DNA of 24,742 nucleotides from Elusimicrobiota bacterium (GTDB taxonomy: Bacteria > Elusimicrobiota > Elusimicrobia > 2-01-FULL-59-12), in assembly GCA_041486625.1 (NCBI GenBank), contig JBGPLV010000001.1:1-24742 (forward strand), given 5' to 3'. Below the pieces are notes generated by a model. It saw nothing but the letters and a program-made list of their open reading frames with translations, had not been told where the DNA came from and did not search any database. Shown in pieces: positions 3,116 through 21,882 of the stretch (position 1 is the stretch's first letter; every line of letters starts with the position of its first letter). A program made the translations under genes and the position numbers.

Positions 3116-4590
3116 GACAGGGCGGCCAGGATTTCGTCCAAGGGAATTAGAGCGAACCCCGTGACGCGGTCCGACATGCCGTAGGGCAGAACCAGCTGAT
3201 CGCCATGCACCAACGCTCCACAGGTATAAAGAACATTGGGCACGTAACCTCCCCGCTCACTCCCTTCGGGACGCATCAGTGGTTCTTTCAGGCGTCCGAT
3301 CACCCTGGAAGGATCCTGCCGGTCCAATAGGAAGGCGCCGAGGCAGTATTGCCGCATCGGCCCCACGCCATGGCTCAAGACCAGCCACCCCGCTTCCGTT
3401 TCGATGGGAGAGCCGCAGTTGCCTATCTTCGTGAACTCCCAGGGATAGAGCGGTTCCATGACGCGCCGGGTCTCAGGCCAAAAATGCACGTTGTCGGAGT
3501 AGGTGAGAAAAATGTTCTCTCCGTCCTGCCGAGAGAGCATGGCAAATCGCCCTTGGATCTTGCGCGGGAATAAGGCCATGCCTTTGTTCTGCGCGCCGGG
3601 CCCGTTCAAGGTGGTGAACTTAAAATGCCGGAAGTCCTCTGTGACGAACGACTGCGGGAGCACATTTCGCCCATCGTAGGCGGTGTAGGTCGCGAAGTAA
3701 GTCGTTTTATCGTTCTCCTCCCGGTACGCCACCAGCCGCACGTCCTCGATCCCATTGCTTTGGAGGGGGGTGACGGGAAAAATGACGCATGCCGAAAGGT
3801 CCTGGTCTGACGGAAAGCGGATTTCATAATTGCACTTGGCCAAAAGCCACAGGCCGCCGGCGACGGGATGGTCCTCAAACCGCCGGTGCGGGGCCATATC
3901 CCGAAGGGCATCCCTCAGGCGGTCTCGTAAGTCTGCCAGGGCGAAACTGTCACCGAGCCGGTCCATCACACGGTTCGCCCATTCGCCGGCCAAACCCATT
4001 TCAGCGATTTTGCGCCTAAAAAGCGATTTGTCGTAGGACGGGTTTTCGATGAGTTCTGGCTCGGTCAAAAACCGTGAACCGGGATCCACGGAAATCTTGT
4101 TGTGAGCATCGATGACCCCGCTGCGGAAAGAGATGGAAGAGATGTGGCCTTCCCCCGTCGACCGGAGGCTAAGAAGAAAGCGCAGGGTGCCTGCCGGCAA
4201 ACCGGATTGATCCGGATGGGGAAGGATGGACGGGTTGAAGAGCCCTGCGGATTCGATGGAATATTCGAAGAGAAAATAGGACCCGATCAAAAGTTTCCGA
4301 GTTTTCGATAGGTTGCCGCCGGGGGGCAGGAAATGCTCGAGGTGACCAAACCTCGCCAAAAAGCGCTCGGCCAATGCCCGATGGCGGGAGGAAAACTCCG
4401 CCAAGACGTGGTCCAGCTCCCGGCGAGCATCGGCTTCCGAGAGCGCCAGCACCCGGCGGATGATCCGGATGTATTCTTCATCGGTCCCTAATCGAAAAGG
4501 CCGCAATACAACCCGGTTTTGGTCCGGGGACAGCCGGACGGAGGTCCGGCGAACGGTGATGGTCTTGGAGTGAACGAGGGGCTGTTTCAT
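3112..4590 (-). CDS. Glycoside hydrolase family 130 protein with N-terminal extension
   Basis: FNPS, GIEDVRL, TYTAYDG, NKGMALFPRKI, KIGNCGSPIET, HGVG and VPNVLYTCG motifs. ATG directly follows the stop of the GT4 gene. Confidence 0.9.
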   Translation of the reverse strand: MKQPLVHSKTITVRRTSVRLSPDQNRVVLRPFRLGTDEEYIRIIRRVLALSEADARRELDHVLAEFSSRHRALAERFLARFGHLEHFLPPGGNLSKTRKLLIGSYFLFEYSIESAGLFNPSILPHPDQSGLPAGTLRFLLSLRSTGEGHISSISFRSGVIDAHNKISVDPGSRFLTEPELIENPSYDKSLFRRKIAEMGLAGEWANRVMDRLGDSFALADLRDRLRDALRDMAPHRRFEDHPVAGGLWLLAKCNYEIRFPSDQDLSACVIFPVTPLQSNGIEDVRLVAYREENDKTTYFATYTAYDGRNVLPQSFVTEDFRHFKFTTLNGPGAQNKGMALFPRKIQGRFAMLSRQDGENIFLTYSDNVHFWPETRRVMEPLYPWEFTKIGNCGSPIETEAGWLVLSHGVGPMRQYCLGAFLLDRQDPSRVIGRLKEPLMRPEGSERGGYVPNVLYTCGALVHGDQLVLPYGMSDRVTGFALIPLDEILAALS

Positions 4591-16529: not shown

Positions 16530-16606
16530 CGCGGGGTGGAGCAGTCTGGCATGCGCTTTCCTCTCGTGCGCAAGCCCCACGGTCGTAAGTGGGGTAGCTC
16601 GTCGGG
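16530..16606 (+). pseudogene. 5' half of initiator tRNA-Met with a 45-nt D-loop insertion (attL-like)
   Basis: 16530-16549 plus 16595-16606 match 21489-21520 at 31/32 nt; insertion at 16550-16594; no 3' half follows. Confidence 0.85.
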
Positions 16607-16715
16607 GAAGATTCATAATTCTATCTACTTTTAGATCTATTTAGCTCTTCTACGTTGCGTTTAATACCCCTATTTCGTCCTGTTTAGCCCGCCTTCGCTG
16701 GACCGAGTTGTAGAG

Positions 16716-16745
16716 CCGATCAGAGTTCCGATCAGCACCGATGAG
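16716..16745 (+). repeat. CCGATCAG direct repeats, left cluster (putative integrase arm-type sites)
   Basis: CCGATCAG at 16716 and 16728, CCGATGAG at 16738. Confidence 0.7.
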
Positions 16746-16771
16746 CTATATAACGCTTTTCTATCGCTCAT

Positions 16772-16814
16772 ACTTGACGAATCACTTGACGAATACTGGA
16801 CGATCAGGTAGACT
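16772..16814 (+). promoter_or_regulatory. Fic gene promoter with tandem operator-like repeats
   Basis: TTGACG (16786), 17-nt spacer, TAGACT (16809), 6 nt, GTG; ACTTGACGAAT at 16772 and 16784 plus a degenerate third copy at 16795. Confidence 0.7.
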
Positions 16815-16820
16815 CTTCCC

Positions 16821-17846
16821 GTGCCTTACAAACCCTGTTTTACGATCACCTCTGAAATTCTACGGCGCCTGGAAACGATCCAGGCGTTGCATGCACGCAT
16901 CCAGGCCGCGGCTATAAAGCTCCCGGCACTGCCGCTCATCCAAAAGGATGTGGTTGTACGTTCCGCCCACGGATCAAGCGCGATCGAAGGTAATCCTCTG
17001 ACGTTGGAGGAAGCTCGGACGGTACTGGAGGGGAAAGATGTCCCCACCGCCACGCGCCGTTCACTTCAGGAAATCCGAAATGCCGCGGCGGCGATGAAAT
17101 TTATTCAGCGTCAAGGCGATGCCAAACTCATCCGCGAAGACGATGTCTTCAAAATTCATACTTTATTGGGTGCCGGAGATGCTCTAGACCGAGGACCGAT
17201 CGGGGCCTACCGCACGTACGGAGTTCAGGTGGGAGGCCATATCGCCCCACATTTTTCCGATGTCCCGCATTTTATGAAAGAGCTTCTGGAATGGCTTAAC
17301 AGCGAAGCTGCTCAGTGGCCGGCGGTCGTCAGCTCAGCGGTACTTCATTTCCGTTTTGAGTTTATTCATCCTTTTGGAGACGGCAATGGTCGTGCGGGCC
17401 GAGCGCTGGCGGCTTGGGAGCTGTACCGCCGGAAGTTTGATAGCCAACATATCTTCGCTGTCGATGAGACGCTCTGGAACAATCGGCGTCTTTATTATTC
17501 GGCTCTGGACCGCACGCAAAAACACCAACAGCAAGACTTATCTTCGTGGATTGAATTTATGGCGGAAATGGTGGAGATCACGCTTGATCAAACGTGGAAA
17601 CGCATGGATGATCTTCCACAGGCGAAGTCCCGTGAGAAGATTCATCTGACGCCACGGCAAGAAAAGCTGTTGAAACTTCTTCGCACTGGGCCTATGAGGC
17701 CCTCCGAGCTTCAAAAAGAATTGGAAGTCACCAAAGGCGGTTTACACTTTATGCTGAAGCCCCTACTCCACGCTGGACTCGTGCAGCGCGCAGGCGGCTA
17801 TAAAACGGGTGTATACCGCATCCCTGACGCACAAGAAAAAGTCTAA
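16821..17846 (+). CDS. Fic-family protein with N-terminal inhibitory motif and C-terminal winged HTH
   Basis: Canonical HPFGDGNGRAGR motif, SSAIEG (S/TxxxEG/N) motif, and LTPRQEKLL...ELEVTKGGLHFMLKPLLHAGLV wHTH. Confidence 0.93.
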   Translation: MPYKPCFTITSEILRRLETIQALHARIQAAAIKLPALPLIQKDVVVRSAHGSSAIEGNPLTLEEARTVLEGKDVPTATRRSLQEIRNAAAAMKFIQRQGDAKLIREDDVFKIHTLLGAGDALDRGPIGAYRTYGVQVGGHIAPHFSDVPHFMKELLEWLNSEAAQWPAVVSSAVLHFRFEFIHPFGDGNGRAGRALAAWELYRRKFDSQHIFAVDETLWNNRRLYYSALDRTQKHQQQDLSSWIEFMAEMVEITLDQTWKRMDDLPQAKSREKIHLTPRQEKLLKLLRTGPMRPSELQKELEVTKGGLHFMLKPLLHAGLVQRAGGYKTGVYRIPDAQEKV

Positions 17847-18153
17847 TGCAGCACCGTCCTCTGCCTGAAGTCGCTGAAGGCGACTTAACTCGCCGGTGCA
17901 GTCCCGACAAAATAGCTCGCCATCGGCGAGCGATATAGGGGACGGGACAGCGTTACGCGCACGGTCGGAAGGCGGCTCCTGCCGCCCACCTCTACCGCCG
18001 CACCCGATCGGCTTGCCAGGCCCGAGCGGGCGCCTCTCCCCCGGCCACGTCCGCCAAGCAGCATTGTCTCTGGATAAACAACTCCCCTTAGCCACTCCAT
18101 CAATTCAGCAGCCCCTTCCCGTTCCCGTCCTTATTGCCGAAAAAGTATCCTAG

Positions 18154-18173
18154 CCGATCAGAAATCCGAACAT
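18154..18173 (+). repeat. CCGATCAG repeat, internal cluster
   Basis: CCGATCAG at 18154 and a degenerate CCGAACAT 12 bp later at 18166. Confidence 0.5.
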
Positions 18174-18277
18174 CGGAGTAAAATGAAGTGTAACGAACTA
18201 CTATGAAATCCCCGCAAAAACAGCCAAAATAGCACCTAGCTTAAACGAAGACTGGTAGCTTCTAAGGCTAGGTCCTA

Positions 18278-21200
18278 TCACGTACCCCCGCTATTGTAAA
18301 AACCGAGTGCTTCCCATTGCTCTGCGGAAACTCCCAGGTGCGCGCGAACCGAATCGTTCAGTTCTCTCGAAAGGGTGATTATTTTGTCATTAAAAAATGA
18401 TTTGTCACGGTCCGTTCTCACTCTCACCAGCCCATCGTAAGACAGTTCAATTGTCTTTGCTGCGTGTGCGATCGCGTTATGACGCGAAACGTCATCTTTT
18501 TTATCCCAATTAACTCGGCGAATCGGAAGCAATTTTAGACGATTCCAGAAATATTCGTATATTCCTGCGCTTTTTAGCTTCGCAAGTTTAAGGAAACGTA
18601 GGGTTAACAAATCTGCGTTCAGTAATCCTAAAAAATAGTACAGGTTTTCCTTCGTTTGTTTAGGAAATAAAACCGTGGTGTCTGTAAGGCCAAGAAAACA
18701 ATTCGTGGAATCTACTGCGAACCGATTATTAGACGCTAAATATGGGCAAAGAACCTTTGGGCCACCATATCTTTCTTCATGCAATGGCCATGTGAATTTC
18801 CACCACTTACAGTCTCCGCGAAGGTATGCGGCCCGCGCTGTAAGAGATGCCTTATTTCTGTTGAGGTGCTCCTGCAATTTCGCGGGAAGTTGTGAGAAAT
18901 CATCAAACCTTTCAAGATAAATTACGAATTTATTCTCATGCTCGATATTAAACTTCTGAATTTGAGAATTCGTCGCTCTCTCGAAAAATTGACCCGCTTT
19001 AAGCTCAAACGCATCTATTTCTGCCTTCGTCCGTTCGCCGAACACGTCATTACATCCAGTCTCCATCCCTTTCCCTAACCAGAATGCCTCGGACAAGGGG
19101 ACAGTATTGCAATCAATCAGCGAGATTATCTTTTCCTCTTGGTCTGTGACGACGTTCCAAGGCTCCGCTCCGAGTGCGTTTGAAGGTTGTAGAGTCCTCT
19201 GAAATGCTTCCGCATTAGCGAGAGTCTCTGCGAGATTCGGCTCGTTCTCAAATTCGGGTTTTAAGTCTATTCTTTCAGTTGATATTCCTCGCTTCTTGGA
19301 CTCGAAACAGATAATGCAGGTAGTAACTCCAACCCCGGGGAAAACGTACCTGTTCTTAAAATCGACTATCTGAGTGATGGACAATTCATCATCATTGCTT
19401 TGCGAAGCTTTGTGGCCTTGAATGCTTCCAACATAGCGCGCGATACAATAAAGCCATTCTTTCCTTTACTGAGGCTTTGCGCCTTTCTGAGAAAATAAAA
19501 AAGCACATCTGTCTTATCGGTATGTACGTCAGGATATCCGCGCTTGAGAAGGGCTAAACGATAATCTTTACGACCCCATGTTGAATCGACGTTGTAATAT
19601 GGCGGGTTTCCAATGACTGCGTCGAATCCGCCTTTATTGAGAATCTTTCCGAAGTGCTGGTGGTAATCGACGGGATTGAGTGACCTCTCTTGCTCTTGAG
19701 TCAGTGTGCTAGACCTGGTGATTTCTCTGTCGATTATCGAATTTCCACAGATTATATTCTTGGCTAAAGATGGAAGAATGGCGTTTTTGAATTCCTCTTG
19801 GTAATTTATTGCGGTCTCGTGAGTTTCCTCTTCGAGAAGTTTCAGTGATAGCGACAGCTGCGCGACTTCGACTGCCTGAGGATCCAAGTCTATTCCGAAC
19901 ACATTGCTGACCAATATATCCCGTTTCTTTTGTAGCGTGAGATGGTAATGCCCATCGCTGTCCTGAAAGCAATCTTTAAGAGTGGTTTCGCTCGGATTCG
20001 CGTTGTAGTATGAGGTGTGATATCGCAGAAGTTCATCGTATATACCCAGCAGGAAGGAACCGCTGCCACAGGCAATATCAATGAATTTTAAAGCCGATAT
20101 CGCCTTTGGGGTCTTATTTTGAATTAGGGGCCGAATTGTATTTGACACTATATAATTCACAATTGCTCGTGGTGTGTAATAGATGCCATTGGCTTTTCGG
20201 AGTTCTGGTTTAGGTCGCAGTTCAATTCGTCCGTCACGGTTTTCAATGACTTTCCCGAGAAAGCGCTCATAAATTGAACCCAAAATCTCGATCGGAACAG
20301 TATTGAAGAGATAAGGAGATGTGTCAGAACGGAAGTCATCGGTGACATCCACAAAGACCCGCTGATCAACTTCAAAGGATTGCCGGTCTAGGATTACATG
20401 CTCTTTAAAGACTACGCCGTTATAAGCGTCATCCATAGTCTGTCGCACAGAAACGAAGTCCCGCCACGGCGTTGCAGATTGTCCGCAGCGCTCAAGGATA
20501 GGTTCTGTTTCGATAGCCTTATCTTCCAAGAAGCGAGTTAGTACAAGTCTGTCGATAGTTCGCTGAGTCATTTCGGTTAAATCTGAATCCGAATAAGCCG
20601 GGTTGATTCCTGTAAATGCGCGAGCCAGTGTGAGTCGGGCTGTTTCGATAGTCTGTAAAAAATCGTCATCCATTGGTTTCGGCGGTGTTCGCAACAGCTG
20701 TAACTGGCGGTGGGGTAGACCGGCGGTTGATATTTTTGAGATAAAGCGCTGGATTGACCCGGAACCTACTGCCTGACGAGAAAGAAGGCTGTAGATTTCG
20801 CGAAATTTTAACTCGTCAGCATATTCTGAATAGTGGTAAATCTTTGCCCAGCGGTTGAGAACGGTATCATGATGGGGCTTATAGCGAGAGTCAATTATGT
20901 GAAGTTCTCGGAAGTTGGTTAGAACGACAATGGGGGTCTGACCATTCCAGCCGTAACGGATTGCTTGGAAATAATTGTCGGCTGTTGTTAATGGAACCGA
21001 AGGTTTTTTGGCCTCTAGGAACCAAACTGGGTCTTGGAAGTTAGGCTGAATGAAGAACGCATAATCTGCTTTCTTCCGGTGCCCCATGACGGTCACTCGT
21101 TGTTCAAGTTTGACCTCTTGGGCCGCGGGGTTTTATTGCGTCACGTGCCCTACGTCCCATCCTAAAGCAATCAACAACTCGTTTAGATAGTCGTTTCGGA

Positions 21201-21318
21201 GATGGGTTTCCTGATACTCAGGAGAAAGGTGGGTTTGCTCGTATGCTTGATAATGCGCAATACGGCGCTTCACATAAGCAAACGCTGTATCGAAACCAGT
21301 TCCAACAAGTTCTGCCAC
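18278..21318 (-). pseudogene. Type IIG (Eco57I/TaqI-C-like) restriction-modification fusion gene with two lesions
   Basis: Three ORF pieces join into one gene: in-frame TAA at 21135-21133 (WDVGHVTQ*NPAAQEVKLE) and a 1-nt frameshift near 19385 (KLRKAMMMN/LSITQIVDF). ADYAF..FLEAKKP nuclease motif, DIACGSGSF motif I, NPPY motif IV and a C-terminal specificity domain. Confidence 0.88.
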
Positions 21319-21404
21319 TTGCAGAAGATAGCCTTTTACTTATATTGCGGTCAATGAAACACCTGAACCCACTTAGCCTGACATGGCTGTAATTAGTATT
21401 CTTG

Positions 21405-21424
21405 CCGATCAGTAATCCGATCAG
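21405..21424 (+). repeat. CCGATCAG direct repeats, right cluster
   Basis: CCGATCAG at 21405 and 21417 (same 12-bp period as the left pair); CGGATCAG at 21455. Confidence 0.7.
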
Positions 21425-21474
21425 CATCATAAATCACCCCGTCGGACAAATTAACGGATCAGCTCGTTATCCCG

Positions 21475-21483
21475 TGCTATAAT
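21475..21483 (+). promoter_or_regulatory. Extended -10 promoter (TGcTATAAT) of the intact tRNA
   Basis: 5 nt upstream of C1, the same spacing as at 16516. Confidence 0.75.
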
Positions 21484-21488
21484 GGCTT

Positions 21489-21827
21489 CGCGGGGTGGAG
21501 CAGCCTGGTAGCTCGTCGGGCTCAATTCCGCAGAATCGAAGTCCAATCCGCCAATTAGATTCTGCGGTGGGCAACGCGTGGAGAAATCCGCGCGGGTTCT
21601 CCTGTCAAAGTCGGGGAAGCCACTAGCGGTGGTAATCCCGAGCCAAGGTCGCTAGAAGTTTAGCGACAAGGTGTAGAGACTTGATGGCAGGTACCCTAGC
21701 GCCGCACGGCGGCAAGGGTAAAGGGAAAGTCCAGACCACAAACTGGCTGATGTTTGGCGAGGCGACGAAAGCCGAAGTGGTAAGCATAACCCGAAGGTCG
21801 TAGGTTCAAATCCTACCCCCGCAACCA
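21489..21827 (+). tRNA. Initiator tRNA-Met (CAT), intron-containing
   Basis: Exon 1 (21489-21522) plus exon 2 (21785-21827) give a 77-nt CGCGGGGTGGAGCAGCCTGGTAGCTCGTCGGGCT/CATAACCCGAAGGTCGTAGGTTCAAATCCTACCCCCGCAACCA, with C1:A72 mismatch, GGG/CCC anticodon stem and encoded CCA. Confidence 0.96.
21523..21784 (+). ncRNA. Group I self-splicing intron (262 nt, no ORF)
   Basis: 5' splice site after U, terminal G. P1 GCU/CA pairs with UGGGC giving a U.G pair at the junction; P2 has a GAAA loop; P3 21601-07/21685-91; P4 21611-16/21636-41; P7 GAGACU 21676-81/AGUCC 21728-32; P8 TACCCT/AGGGTA; P9.0 ACCAC/GTGGT. Confidence 0.93.
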
Positions 21828-21859
21828 GGTGTTCACTGAAGGGTGGACACCTGGTTTTT
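21825..21859 (+). terminator. Rho-independent terminator after the tRNA
   Basis: CCAGGTGTTCAC-tgaagg-GTGGACACCTGG followed by TTTTT. Confidence 0.85.
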
Positions 21860-21882
21860 CGTTTTTGGGGGAAATGACGTCC

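Follow-up and report, generated by a model that had tools for sequence, protein, structure and literature searches.

A group I intron without an ORF in the initiator tRNA gene of an Elusimicrobiota bacterium

Among the introns of bacterial tRNA genes, fMet.2Ug is given by Williams (2020, bioRxiv 10.1101/2020.01.27.920355) as one of four classical types, the suffix 2Ug standing for loop position 2, U-1 and omega-G; that listing gives all four as subgroup IC3 on the authority of the group I intron database. The earliest description of the tRNA-fMet intron was from cyanobacteria (Biniszkiewicz, Cesnaviciene & Shub 1994, EMBO J 13:4629, as cited in PMC2686568). The copy in Synechocystis sp. PCC 6803 is reported as 655 nt long, with a 150-aa ORF for the PD-(D/E)XK enzyme I-Ssp6803I (PMC1995217; PMC3384342; Bonocora & Shub 2001), and a 2012 review speaks of the I-Ssp6803I/tRNA-fMet intron as generally encoded by cyanobacteria (PMC3384342).

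The insert considered here lies in the window (the whole stretch of 24,742 nt that was analysed, contig JBGPLV010000001.1) of an Elusimicrobiota metagenome bin of 1.79 Mb, in 259 contigs, 73% complete and with 2.2% estimated contamination. It is very probably a self-splicing group I intron of the fMet.2Ug type, located at U33/C34 of what is apparently the only initiator tRNA, a deletion derivative without an ORF, and horizontally acquired. The initiator tRNA-Met(CAU) gene (21489-21827, plus strand) is interrupted after U33 by 262 nt (Table 1). ARAGORN with introns allowed (-i) reports it as tRNA-Met(cat) i(35,262), with the intron after linear position 34, which is U33. The joined exons form a textbook 77-nt cloverleaf with the hallmarks of a bacterial initiator: a C1xA72 mismatch, an anticodon stem closed by three consecutive G-C pairs, the anticodon CAU and an encoded CCA. 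An earlier note on this DNA had claimed an insertion between U33 and C34, a CAU loop restored on removal of the intron, and a terminal G. All of these hold: U33/C34 is the sole cut in the loop at which U-1, omega-G and a restored CAU coincide, and the insert starts with CAAUU and ends with GUAAG, the last base being G21784.

The extended -10 element in front of the gene was missed by a consensus promoter scan because that scan demands a -35 hexamer; the element is also present before the uninterrupted tRNA-fMet genes of two relatives (L129 and L131). ARAGORN found 28 tRNAs in the whole bin. Two others have a CAU anticodon, with G1-C72 and without the GGG/CCC anticodon stem, and are therefore elongator or Ile2 types; a second initiator gene was not found among the 28 tRNAs of this 73%-complete bin. 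As far as the assembly shows, the split gene is thus apparently the sole initiator tRNA gene of the organism, and if so, splicing of the intron would be essential for the host. Other calls of tRNAs with introns by ARAGORN -i, on contigs C27, C50 and C135, were treated as false positives, since by eye they resemble ordinary coding or intergenic sequence and the intron used as a query matches nowhere else in the genome.

With default settings ARAGORN returns zero tRNAs in the 24.7-kb window, and Rfam at gathering cut-offs returns zero RNA families, so the expectation that standard annotation would overlook this tRNA was justified. A permissive Rfam search matches the Intron_gpI model (RF00028) over its full length (model positions 1-253 of 253, E 6.1e-10), but at 43.7 bits it falls short of the gathering score of 50, and the default search accordingly passes over the intron. 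For annotation, this means that the genome seems to lack an initiator tRNA when tRNA finders are run with default settings and Rfam at its cut-offs, and the tRNA inventories and quality scores of bins like this one are understated as a result.

Table 1. Features of the split tRNA-fMet gene and its intron, in window coordinates.
Feature	Position	Strand	Evidence
Extended -10 element of the promoter (TGcTATAAT), ending 5 nt before tRNA position 1	21475..21483	+	Read from sequence
5' exon of tRNA-fMet, standard positions 1-33, 34 nt, ending GGGCU (U33)	21489..21522	+	ARAGORN -i; same as 5' half of uninterrupted same-genus and same-family genes
P1 5' strand GCU/CA, pairing with 21568-21572 (UGGGC); splice-site wobble U21522.G21570	21520..21524	+	G-C, C-G, U.G, C-G invariant in 50/50
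Predicted group I intron, 262 nt, fMet.2Ug, without ORF	21523..21784	+	RF00028; homology to 89 other tRNA-fMet introns; covariation
P1 extension hairpin, 10-bp stem CCGCAGAAUC/GAUUCUGCGG (21528-21537 / 21558-21567), 20-nt loop	21528..21567	+	Alignments with L053 and L137; stem in MFE fold
P2, 8 bp, GAAA loop	21575..21594	+	8/8 pairs compensatory; 93.3% of cells paired
P3 5' strand, pairing with 21686-21691	21601..21606	+	100% of cells paired; 4/6 pairs compensatory
P4 (21611-21615 / 21637-21641) enclosing P5 (21619-21623 / 21629-21633)	21611..21641	+	5 P4 and 3 outer P5 pairs 99-100% paired
P6 (21642-21644 / 21670-21672) and P6a (21648-21654 / 21661-21667)	21642..21672	+	6/7 P6a pairs one helix, all compensatory, 86.8% of cells paired
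P7 5' strand G-A-GACU with bulged A, pairing with 21728-21732; guanosine-binding helix, pseudoknot with P3	21676..21681	+	5/5 pairs invariant in 50/50
P8, outer 4 bp (21694-21697 / 21715-21718) and inner extension	21694..21718	+	95.9% of cells paired; 4/4 compensatory; inner stem in MFE fold
P9.0-type closing stem (21735-21739 / 21777-21781) around P9 region, including GAAA-loop hairpin 21763-21774	21735..21781	+	Helix 14 95.6%, helix 15 99.5% paired
Terminal (omega) G	21784..21784	+	ARAGORN -i; G invariant in 50-sequence alignment, no independent test since the intron extraction pattern demanded a terminal G
3' exon of tRNA-fMet, C34 to encoded CCA, beginning CAUAACCC	21785..21827	+	ARAGORN -i; exon positions 1-40 to 1-43 100% identical in relatives
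Intrinsic terminator, 15-pair hairpin then T tract, overlapping CCA end	21823..21866	+	Terminator scan

The secondary structure was drawn manually from the sequence of the window (P1, P1 extension, P2-P6, P6a, the P7 pseudoknot, P8, a P9.0-type stem and the P9 GAAA hairpin) and then projected onto an alignment (A1) of 50 non-redundant ORF-less tRNA-fMet introns, the window copy and 49 relatives, chosen from 90 extracted homologues. Standard pairs make up 91.7% of the 3012 helix cells, compared with 32-44% in controls whose 3' partners are displaced by 1-3 columns; taking the structure from the window sequence somewhat favours such counts of paired cells, while the compensatory counts are independent of it. 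Changes on both sides that preserve pairing occur in 45 of 67 pairs, located in P2, P3, P6a, P8 and both P9 helices, and none of 500 shuffles attains any of the observed covariation measures. The drawing has 12 helices (15 runs on the alignment), 10 of which are 87-100% paired across the 50 members, with P3, P4, P6, P7 and P8 at 96-100%. P1, including its U.G pair, and P7 are invariant in all 50, save for the fifth P1 pair (A7-U51), which is unpaired in 12. Weaker pairing across the family is found in the variable P1 extension, in the inner two P5 pairs (paired in the window, 41% across the family) and in the seventh, loop-closing P6a pair (40%). The minimum free energy fold (-110 kcal/mol, z-score -4.64) recovers most of the helices without the alignment. 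Together with the full-length RF00028 match, the paired core helices and the covariation agree with the claim that a complete group I intron is present, and the 10-bp extension of P1 is found as had been described.

The distribution of such introns was surveyed in a set with a single genome for each species; a scan for the 5'-exon junction with CA next to it and any third base but T gave at least 119 stretches. These include at least 86 complete tRNA-fMet genes split at U33/C34, with inserts of 193-695 nt that start with CA and end with G, and about nine further introns cut by contig ends among the matches listed. At least 58 of the 86 or more split genes are outside the Cyanobacteriota, in at least 11 named phyla; non-cyanobacterial hosts are thus common for the tRNA-fMet intron in present data. 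By phylum, as taken from submitters' titles, there are at least 28 split genes in Cyanobacteriota, 24 in Bacteroidota, 14 in Nitrospirota, seven in Omnitrophota, three in Planctomycetota, two each in Methylomirabilota and Pseudomonadota, and one each in Actinomycetota, Armatimonadota, Vulcanimicrobiota and Thermodesulfobacteriota. The two remaining rows, a "Patescibacteria group" MAG and an unclassified "uncultured bacterium", were placed in no phylum. One of the two Pseudomonadota cases, from a MAG labelled Acetobacteraceae (L082), has an intron that nests inside the Nostoc copies, beside L020 (branch lengths 0.02 each), and the contig is probably cyanobiont DNA in the wrong bin.

Taken together with the published listing, the insert is best described as a new host record and an ORF-less variant of the catalogued mobile intron family fMet.2Ug, not as a new kind of element. 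The novelty implied by the earlier note falls away, since this type was already catalogued and is common outside the cyanobacteria. That note had itself held that novelty would fall if the host were cyanobacterial or the clade already catalogued; it is the second of these that applies, and the first does not.

The scans also returned loci of other kinds. Five (L014, L047, L059, L070 and L119, from Bacteroidota, Dethiobacteria, Acidobacteria, Acidimicrobiia and actinobacterial MAGs) have initiator-type tRNA bodies, with the same D arm and GGG/CCC stem, and the anticodon CAG instead of CAU (GGGCUCAGAACCC). Others have tRNA-fMet-like 5' halves with odd inserts of 15-25 nt (e.g., CAACUCUUUAUAA...) before GAAGGUCG (L046, L055, L065, L081, L094, L100, L107, L108, L114-L116 and L123); these are from Shewanella, Catenovulum and other Gammaproteobacteria and are sometimes in tandem, with three copies in L055. 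Such inserts are too short for group I introns, and could be decayed copies, attachment-site remnants or mini-inserts. In the host's own class, ARAGORN reports a tRNA-Leu(CAA) with a 196-nt insert at another loop position (L006, G022:C106), which matches the window core weakly (E 1e-4) and may be a second group I intron type in that class.

Closer to the host, the intron was not found by DNA similarity in three same-genus and seven same-family genomes. Uninterrupted tRNA-fMet genes are present in two of the former (G002 and G003) and two of the latter (G004 and G005), with exons identical to those of the window and an empty site that reads GGGCU followed directly by CAUAACCC. The same comparison did detect it in one same-order genome and in two genomes of the same class (L003 and L004). 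L005, another match from that class, consists of a fragment lying at the end of a contig, in which ARAGORN finds no tRNA gene. In an even sample of the host phylum, the split junction occurs in three of 401 genomes, the host included.

A maximum-likelihood tree built on the ribozyme core (90 rows, 225 columns) pairs the window copy with one from a Planctomycetia MAG (L053; support 99/97), and the pair adjoins the cyanobacterial clade. The intron is thus beside the cyanobacterial tRNA-fMet introns and not inside them. The same-order copy is found among those of Nitrospirota and Methylomirabilota, and the same-class copies near those of Bacteroidota. Constraining the four host-phylum introns to one clade costs 37 log-likelihood units, with a borderline AU p of 0.048. 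These separate places in the tree and the AU result point, with moderate confidence, to several independent introductions of the intron into the phylum. Vertical descent from an ancestor of the host's class, with repeated loss instead of horizontal gain, would also account for the three other genomes of the same class or order that have an intron at the same site; the AU test rejects a single clade only marginally, and precise loss is easy, via reverse splicing or recombination with cDNA or an intron-less allele. It is nonetheless unlikely, given that the four introns group with differing foreign phyla, that the intron is so rare in the phylum sample and went unseen in the 10 other genomes of the family, and that this intron family encodes a homing endonuclease, a known vehicle of lateral spread. 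Horizontal gain is the reading adopted below.

The host itself was examined through RsgA, encoded on the same contig as the intron. It is 63-83% identical to metagenome relatives, 52-54% to Brevibacillus, 35% to Trichodesmium and 30% to Melainabacteria, placing it far from the cyanobacterial genomes. Photosynthetic reaction-centre (Photo_RC) genes were not found in the bin or in 30 same-class relatives, with a positive Synechococcus control. The host is not an oxygenic cyanobacterium, as the earlier note had supposed from the sequence. A misbinned contig from some other organism, e.g., a cyanobacterium, would make this an artefact. The bin is a 259-contig metagenome assembly with some estimated contamination, and at least one public bin shows just such an artefact, the "Acetobacteraceae" intron inside the Nostoc clade. 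Here, however, close matches to the tRNA exons, and to about 60 nt of promoter region upstream of them, are present in G002 (same genus) and G005 (same family), the best matches of RsgA are to the metagenome relatives, and the intron is outside the cyanobacterial clade, all of which make misbinning extremely improbable.

No ORF of 80 aa or more overlaps the window intron, in keeping with the earlier claim that it has no homing endonuclease ORF. In members of the family of about 650 nt, an ORF begins a few bases past the 5' strand of the P1 extension. The ORFs of L002, L053 and L137 are I-Ssp6803I homologues (PDB 2OST E 1.1e-57; PF11645 167-169 bits). L137 (Ga0302326_10124558) was the one contig returned by a metagenome scan with a pattern specific to the clade of the window and L053, and is the closest relative. 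Its tRNA-fMet intron is 666 nt long and matches 233 of the 262 window bases (~89%; 87.7% over 268 nt by blastn), with an intact I-Ssp6803I-like ORF between the strands of the P1 extension. The final codons of this ORF double as the extension's 3' strand and as the internal guide. The contig is not syntenic with the window; tblastx shows only the tRNA and intron to be shared.

The 20-nt loop of the window's P1 extension is colinear with the 3' part of the L137 ORF, with 13 of 15 bases matching at 21543-21557, for which a rough calculation gives a chance expectation of about 4e-4. This remnant argues that the window copy is a deletion derivative from which some 400 nt of ORF have been lost. The P1 extension has about six pairs in L137 versus a perfect 10 in the window, and the stem appears to have been tightened after the loss. 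A search of the 73%-complete bin with 23 intron ORFs (tblastn) did not find a free-standing I-Ssp6803I-like gene; it hit the ribozyme core alone, where the relatives' ORFs read through the core. With its ORF lost and no free-standing homologue found in the bin, the copy is predicted not to be autonomously mobile. The ORFs of L053 (4003-4560) and L137 (2600-3208, minus strand) are 185 and 202 aa long, compared with 150 aa for I-Ssp6803I, and read through P1, P2, P3 and much of the ribozyme core, so that one stretch of bases both encodes protein and forms part of the catalytic RNA.

The splicing steps proposed here follow established group I chemistry. The gene would be transcribed from its own extended -10 promoter and ended at its own terminator. 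GCU of the exon and CA of the intron would pair with the internal guide UGGGC to form P1, with the U.G wobble at the splice site, and a free guanosine bound in P7 would attack after U33. Because the 3' exon begins with the same CA as the intron, it could then take the place of the intron's CA on the guide (P10). The CA start is conserved in all 90 introns, which fits this, although the search pattern required CA and the conservation is no independent observation. G21784 would enter the guanosine site and the exons would be ligated, restoring CUCAUAA and with it a normal CAU anticodon loop. As to history, the ancestor would have carried an I-Ssp6803I-type PD-(D/E)XK gene between the strands of the P1 extension, deletions removing about 400 nt would have left the intron unable to home by itself, and the intron would have reached this lineage by horizontal transfer, not by descent within the phylum.

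The main departures of the window copy from its family are in P9. Among 97 columns conserved in at least 90% of the alignment, it matches 94 and differs at three, all in the P9 hairpin; the family median is two. Two of the three form a compensated pair common to the window, L137 and L018. An A.C mismatch (21765 x 21772) in the 4-bp stem of the P9 GAAA hairpin is found in the window alone among the 50 sequences; the corresponding stem of L137 is perfect (CGGC/GCCG), and the mismatch is therefore derived. This mismatch, the incompleteness of the genome and the loss of the homing endonuclease ORF, a usual prelude to intron decay, could all be taken as signs that the intron is catalytically dead and the split gene a pseudogene, with an uninterrupted initiator gene in the unassembled 27%. 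That appears very unlikely when all core helices pair in the window, so few conserved columns deviate, and the exons are identical to those of the functional genes of relatives, with promoter and terminator intact. The perfect 10-bp P1 extension that followed ORF loss suggests continuing selection at the RNA level, and the 28 tRNAs found include no other initiator gene. An active intron is thus the preferred reading.

Other elements are found around this tRNA. At 4.96 kb upstream of the real gene is an orphan copy of tRNA-fMet positions 1-32 (16530-16606). It has its own TGCTATAAT promoter, is interrupted in turn by an insert of 45 nt, and loses its homology to the tRNA 2 nt before the intron site. 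Between the two is an island (16607-21488) with a Fic-domain gene (16821-17846), a 368-aa ORF (18278-19384) and a PglX-like adenine methyltransferase (19366-21096). The working gene and the intron-less genes of G002 and G005 have similar promoter regions. On the L137 contig, a large serine recombinase and a relaxase fragment (19-2537) abut the 3' end of tRNA-fMet, and some 450 nt upstream there is an orphan 26-nt copy of the tRNA 5' half (~3686-3711), whose end falls at another tRNA position (~27). tRNA-fMet has the look of an integration hot spot used by elements of several kinds.

A more far-reaching reading would have translation initiation wholly dependent on horizontally acquired self-splicing, and the anticodon-loop region as a contested landing site, where a 5-kb island displaced the original 5' half and, on the related contig, a serine-recombinase element sits at the tRNA; the intron would reshape the crossover sites of integrative elements or shield the gene from homing-endonuclease cleavage, and so be kept, without an ORF, for its benefit. 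As a whole this is decidedly unlikely. More soberly, the window copy leaves the known working of such introns unchanged and is a real but ordinary host record. It adds a further data point for the I-Ssp6803I/tRNA-fMet intron as a selfish element that crosses phyla and is not a cyanobacterial peculiarity, and offers a snapshot of a homing cycle, with empty sites in related genomes, an ORF-bearing near-relative, and a deletion derivative with a re-stabilised P1 extension.

Compared with the cyanobacterial tRNA-fMet introns, the window copy has the same host gene, insertion point (U33/C34), U-1, omega-G, CA start and long P1 extension hairpin, and a homologous core with up to 76% identity over 185 columns and the same P2-P9 architecture; it aligns over its full length with the tRNA-fMet introns of Nostoc, Scytonema, Trichodesmium and others. 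It differs in its host, which is no oxygenic cyanobacterium, in the P9a element, and in its position outside the cyanobacterial clade, as sister to the Planctomycetia copy in a pair adjoining the cyanobacteria. The Synechocystis intron with I-Ssp6803I belongs to the same mobile-element family, and the window's nearest relatives, L137 and L053, carry homologues of the enzyme at the same place in the intron; the window copy has lost the ORF and kept a 15-nt remnant. The seed Tpc1.fMet.2Ug, as given in Williams (2020), shares its long P1 extension and its core with the window, and it is from that listing that the subgroup IC3 under which the window intron is listed here has been carried over. The small IC3 ribozymes of Azoarcus tRNA-Ile(CAU) and Anabaena tRNA-Leu(UAA), likened here by description, are also compact introns of the anticodon loop, 200-260 nt long, in which GAAA tetraloops cap P2 and P9 and a P9.0 closing stem is present, but they are found in other tRNAs and at other loop positions (Ile2.5Ug and Leu.3Ug) and are without the ORF-bearing P1 extension.
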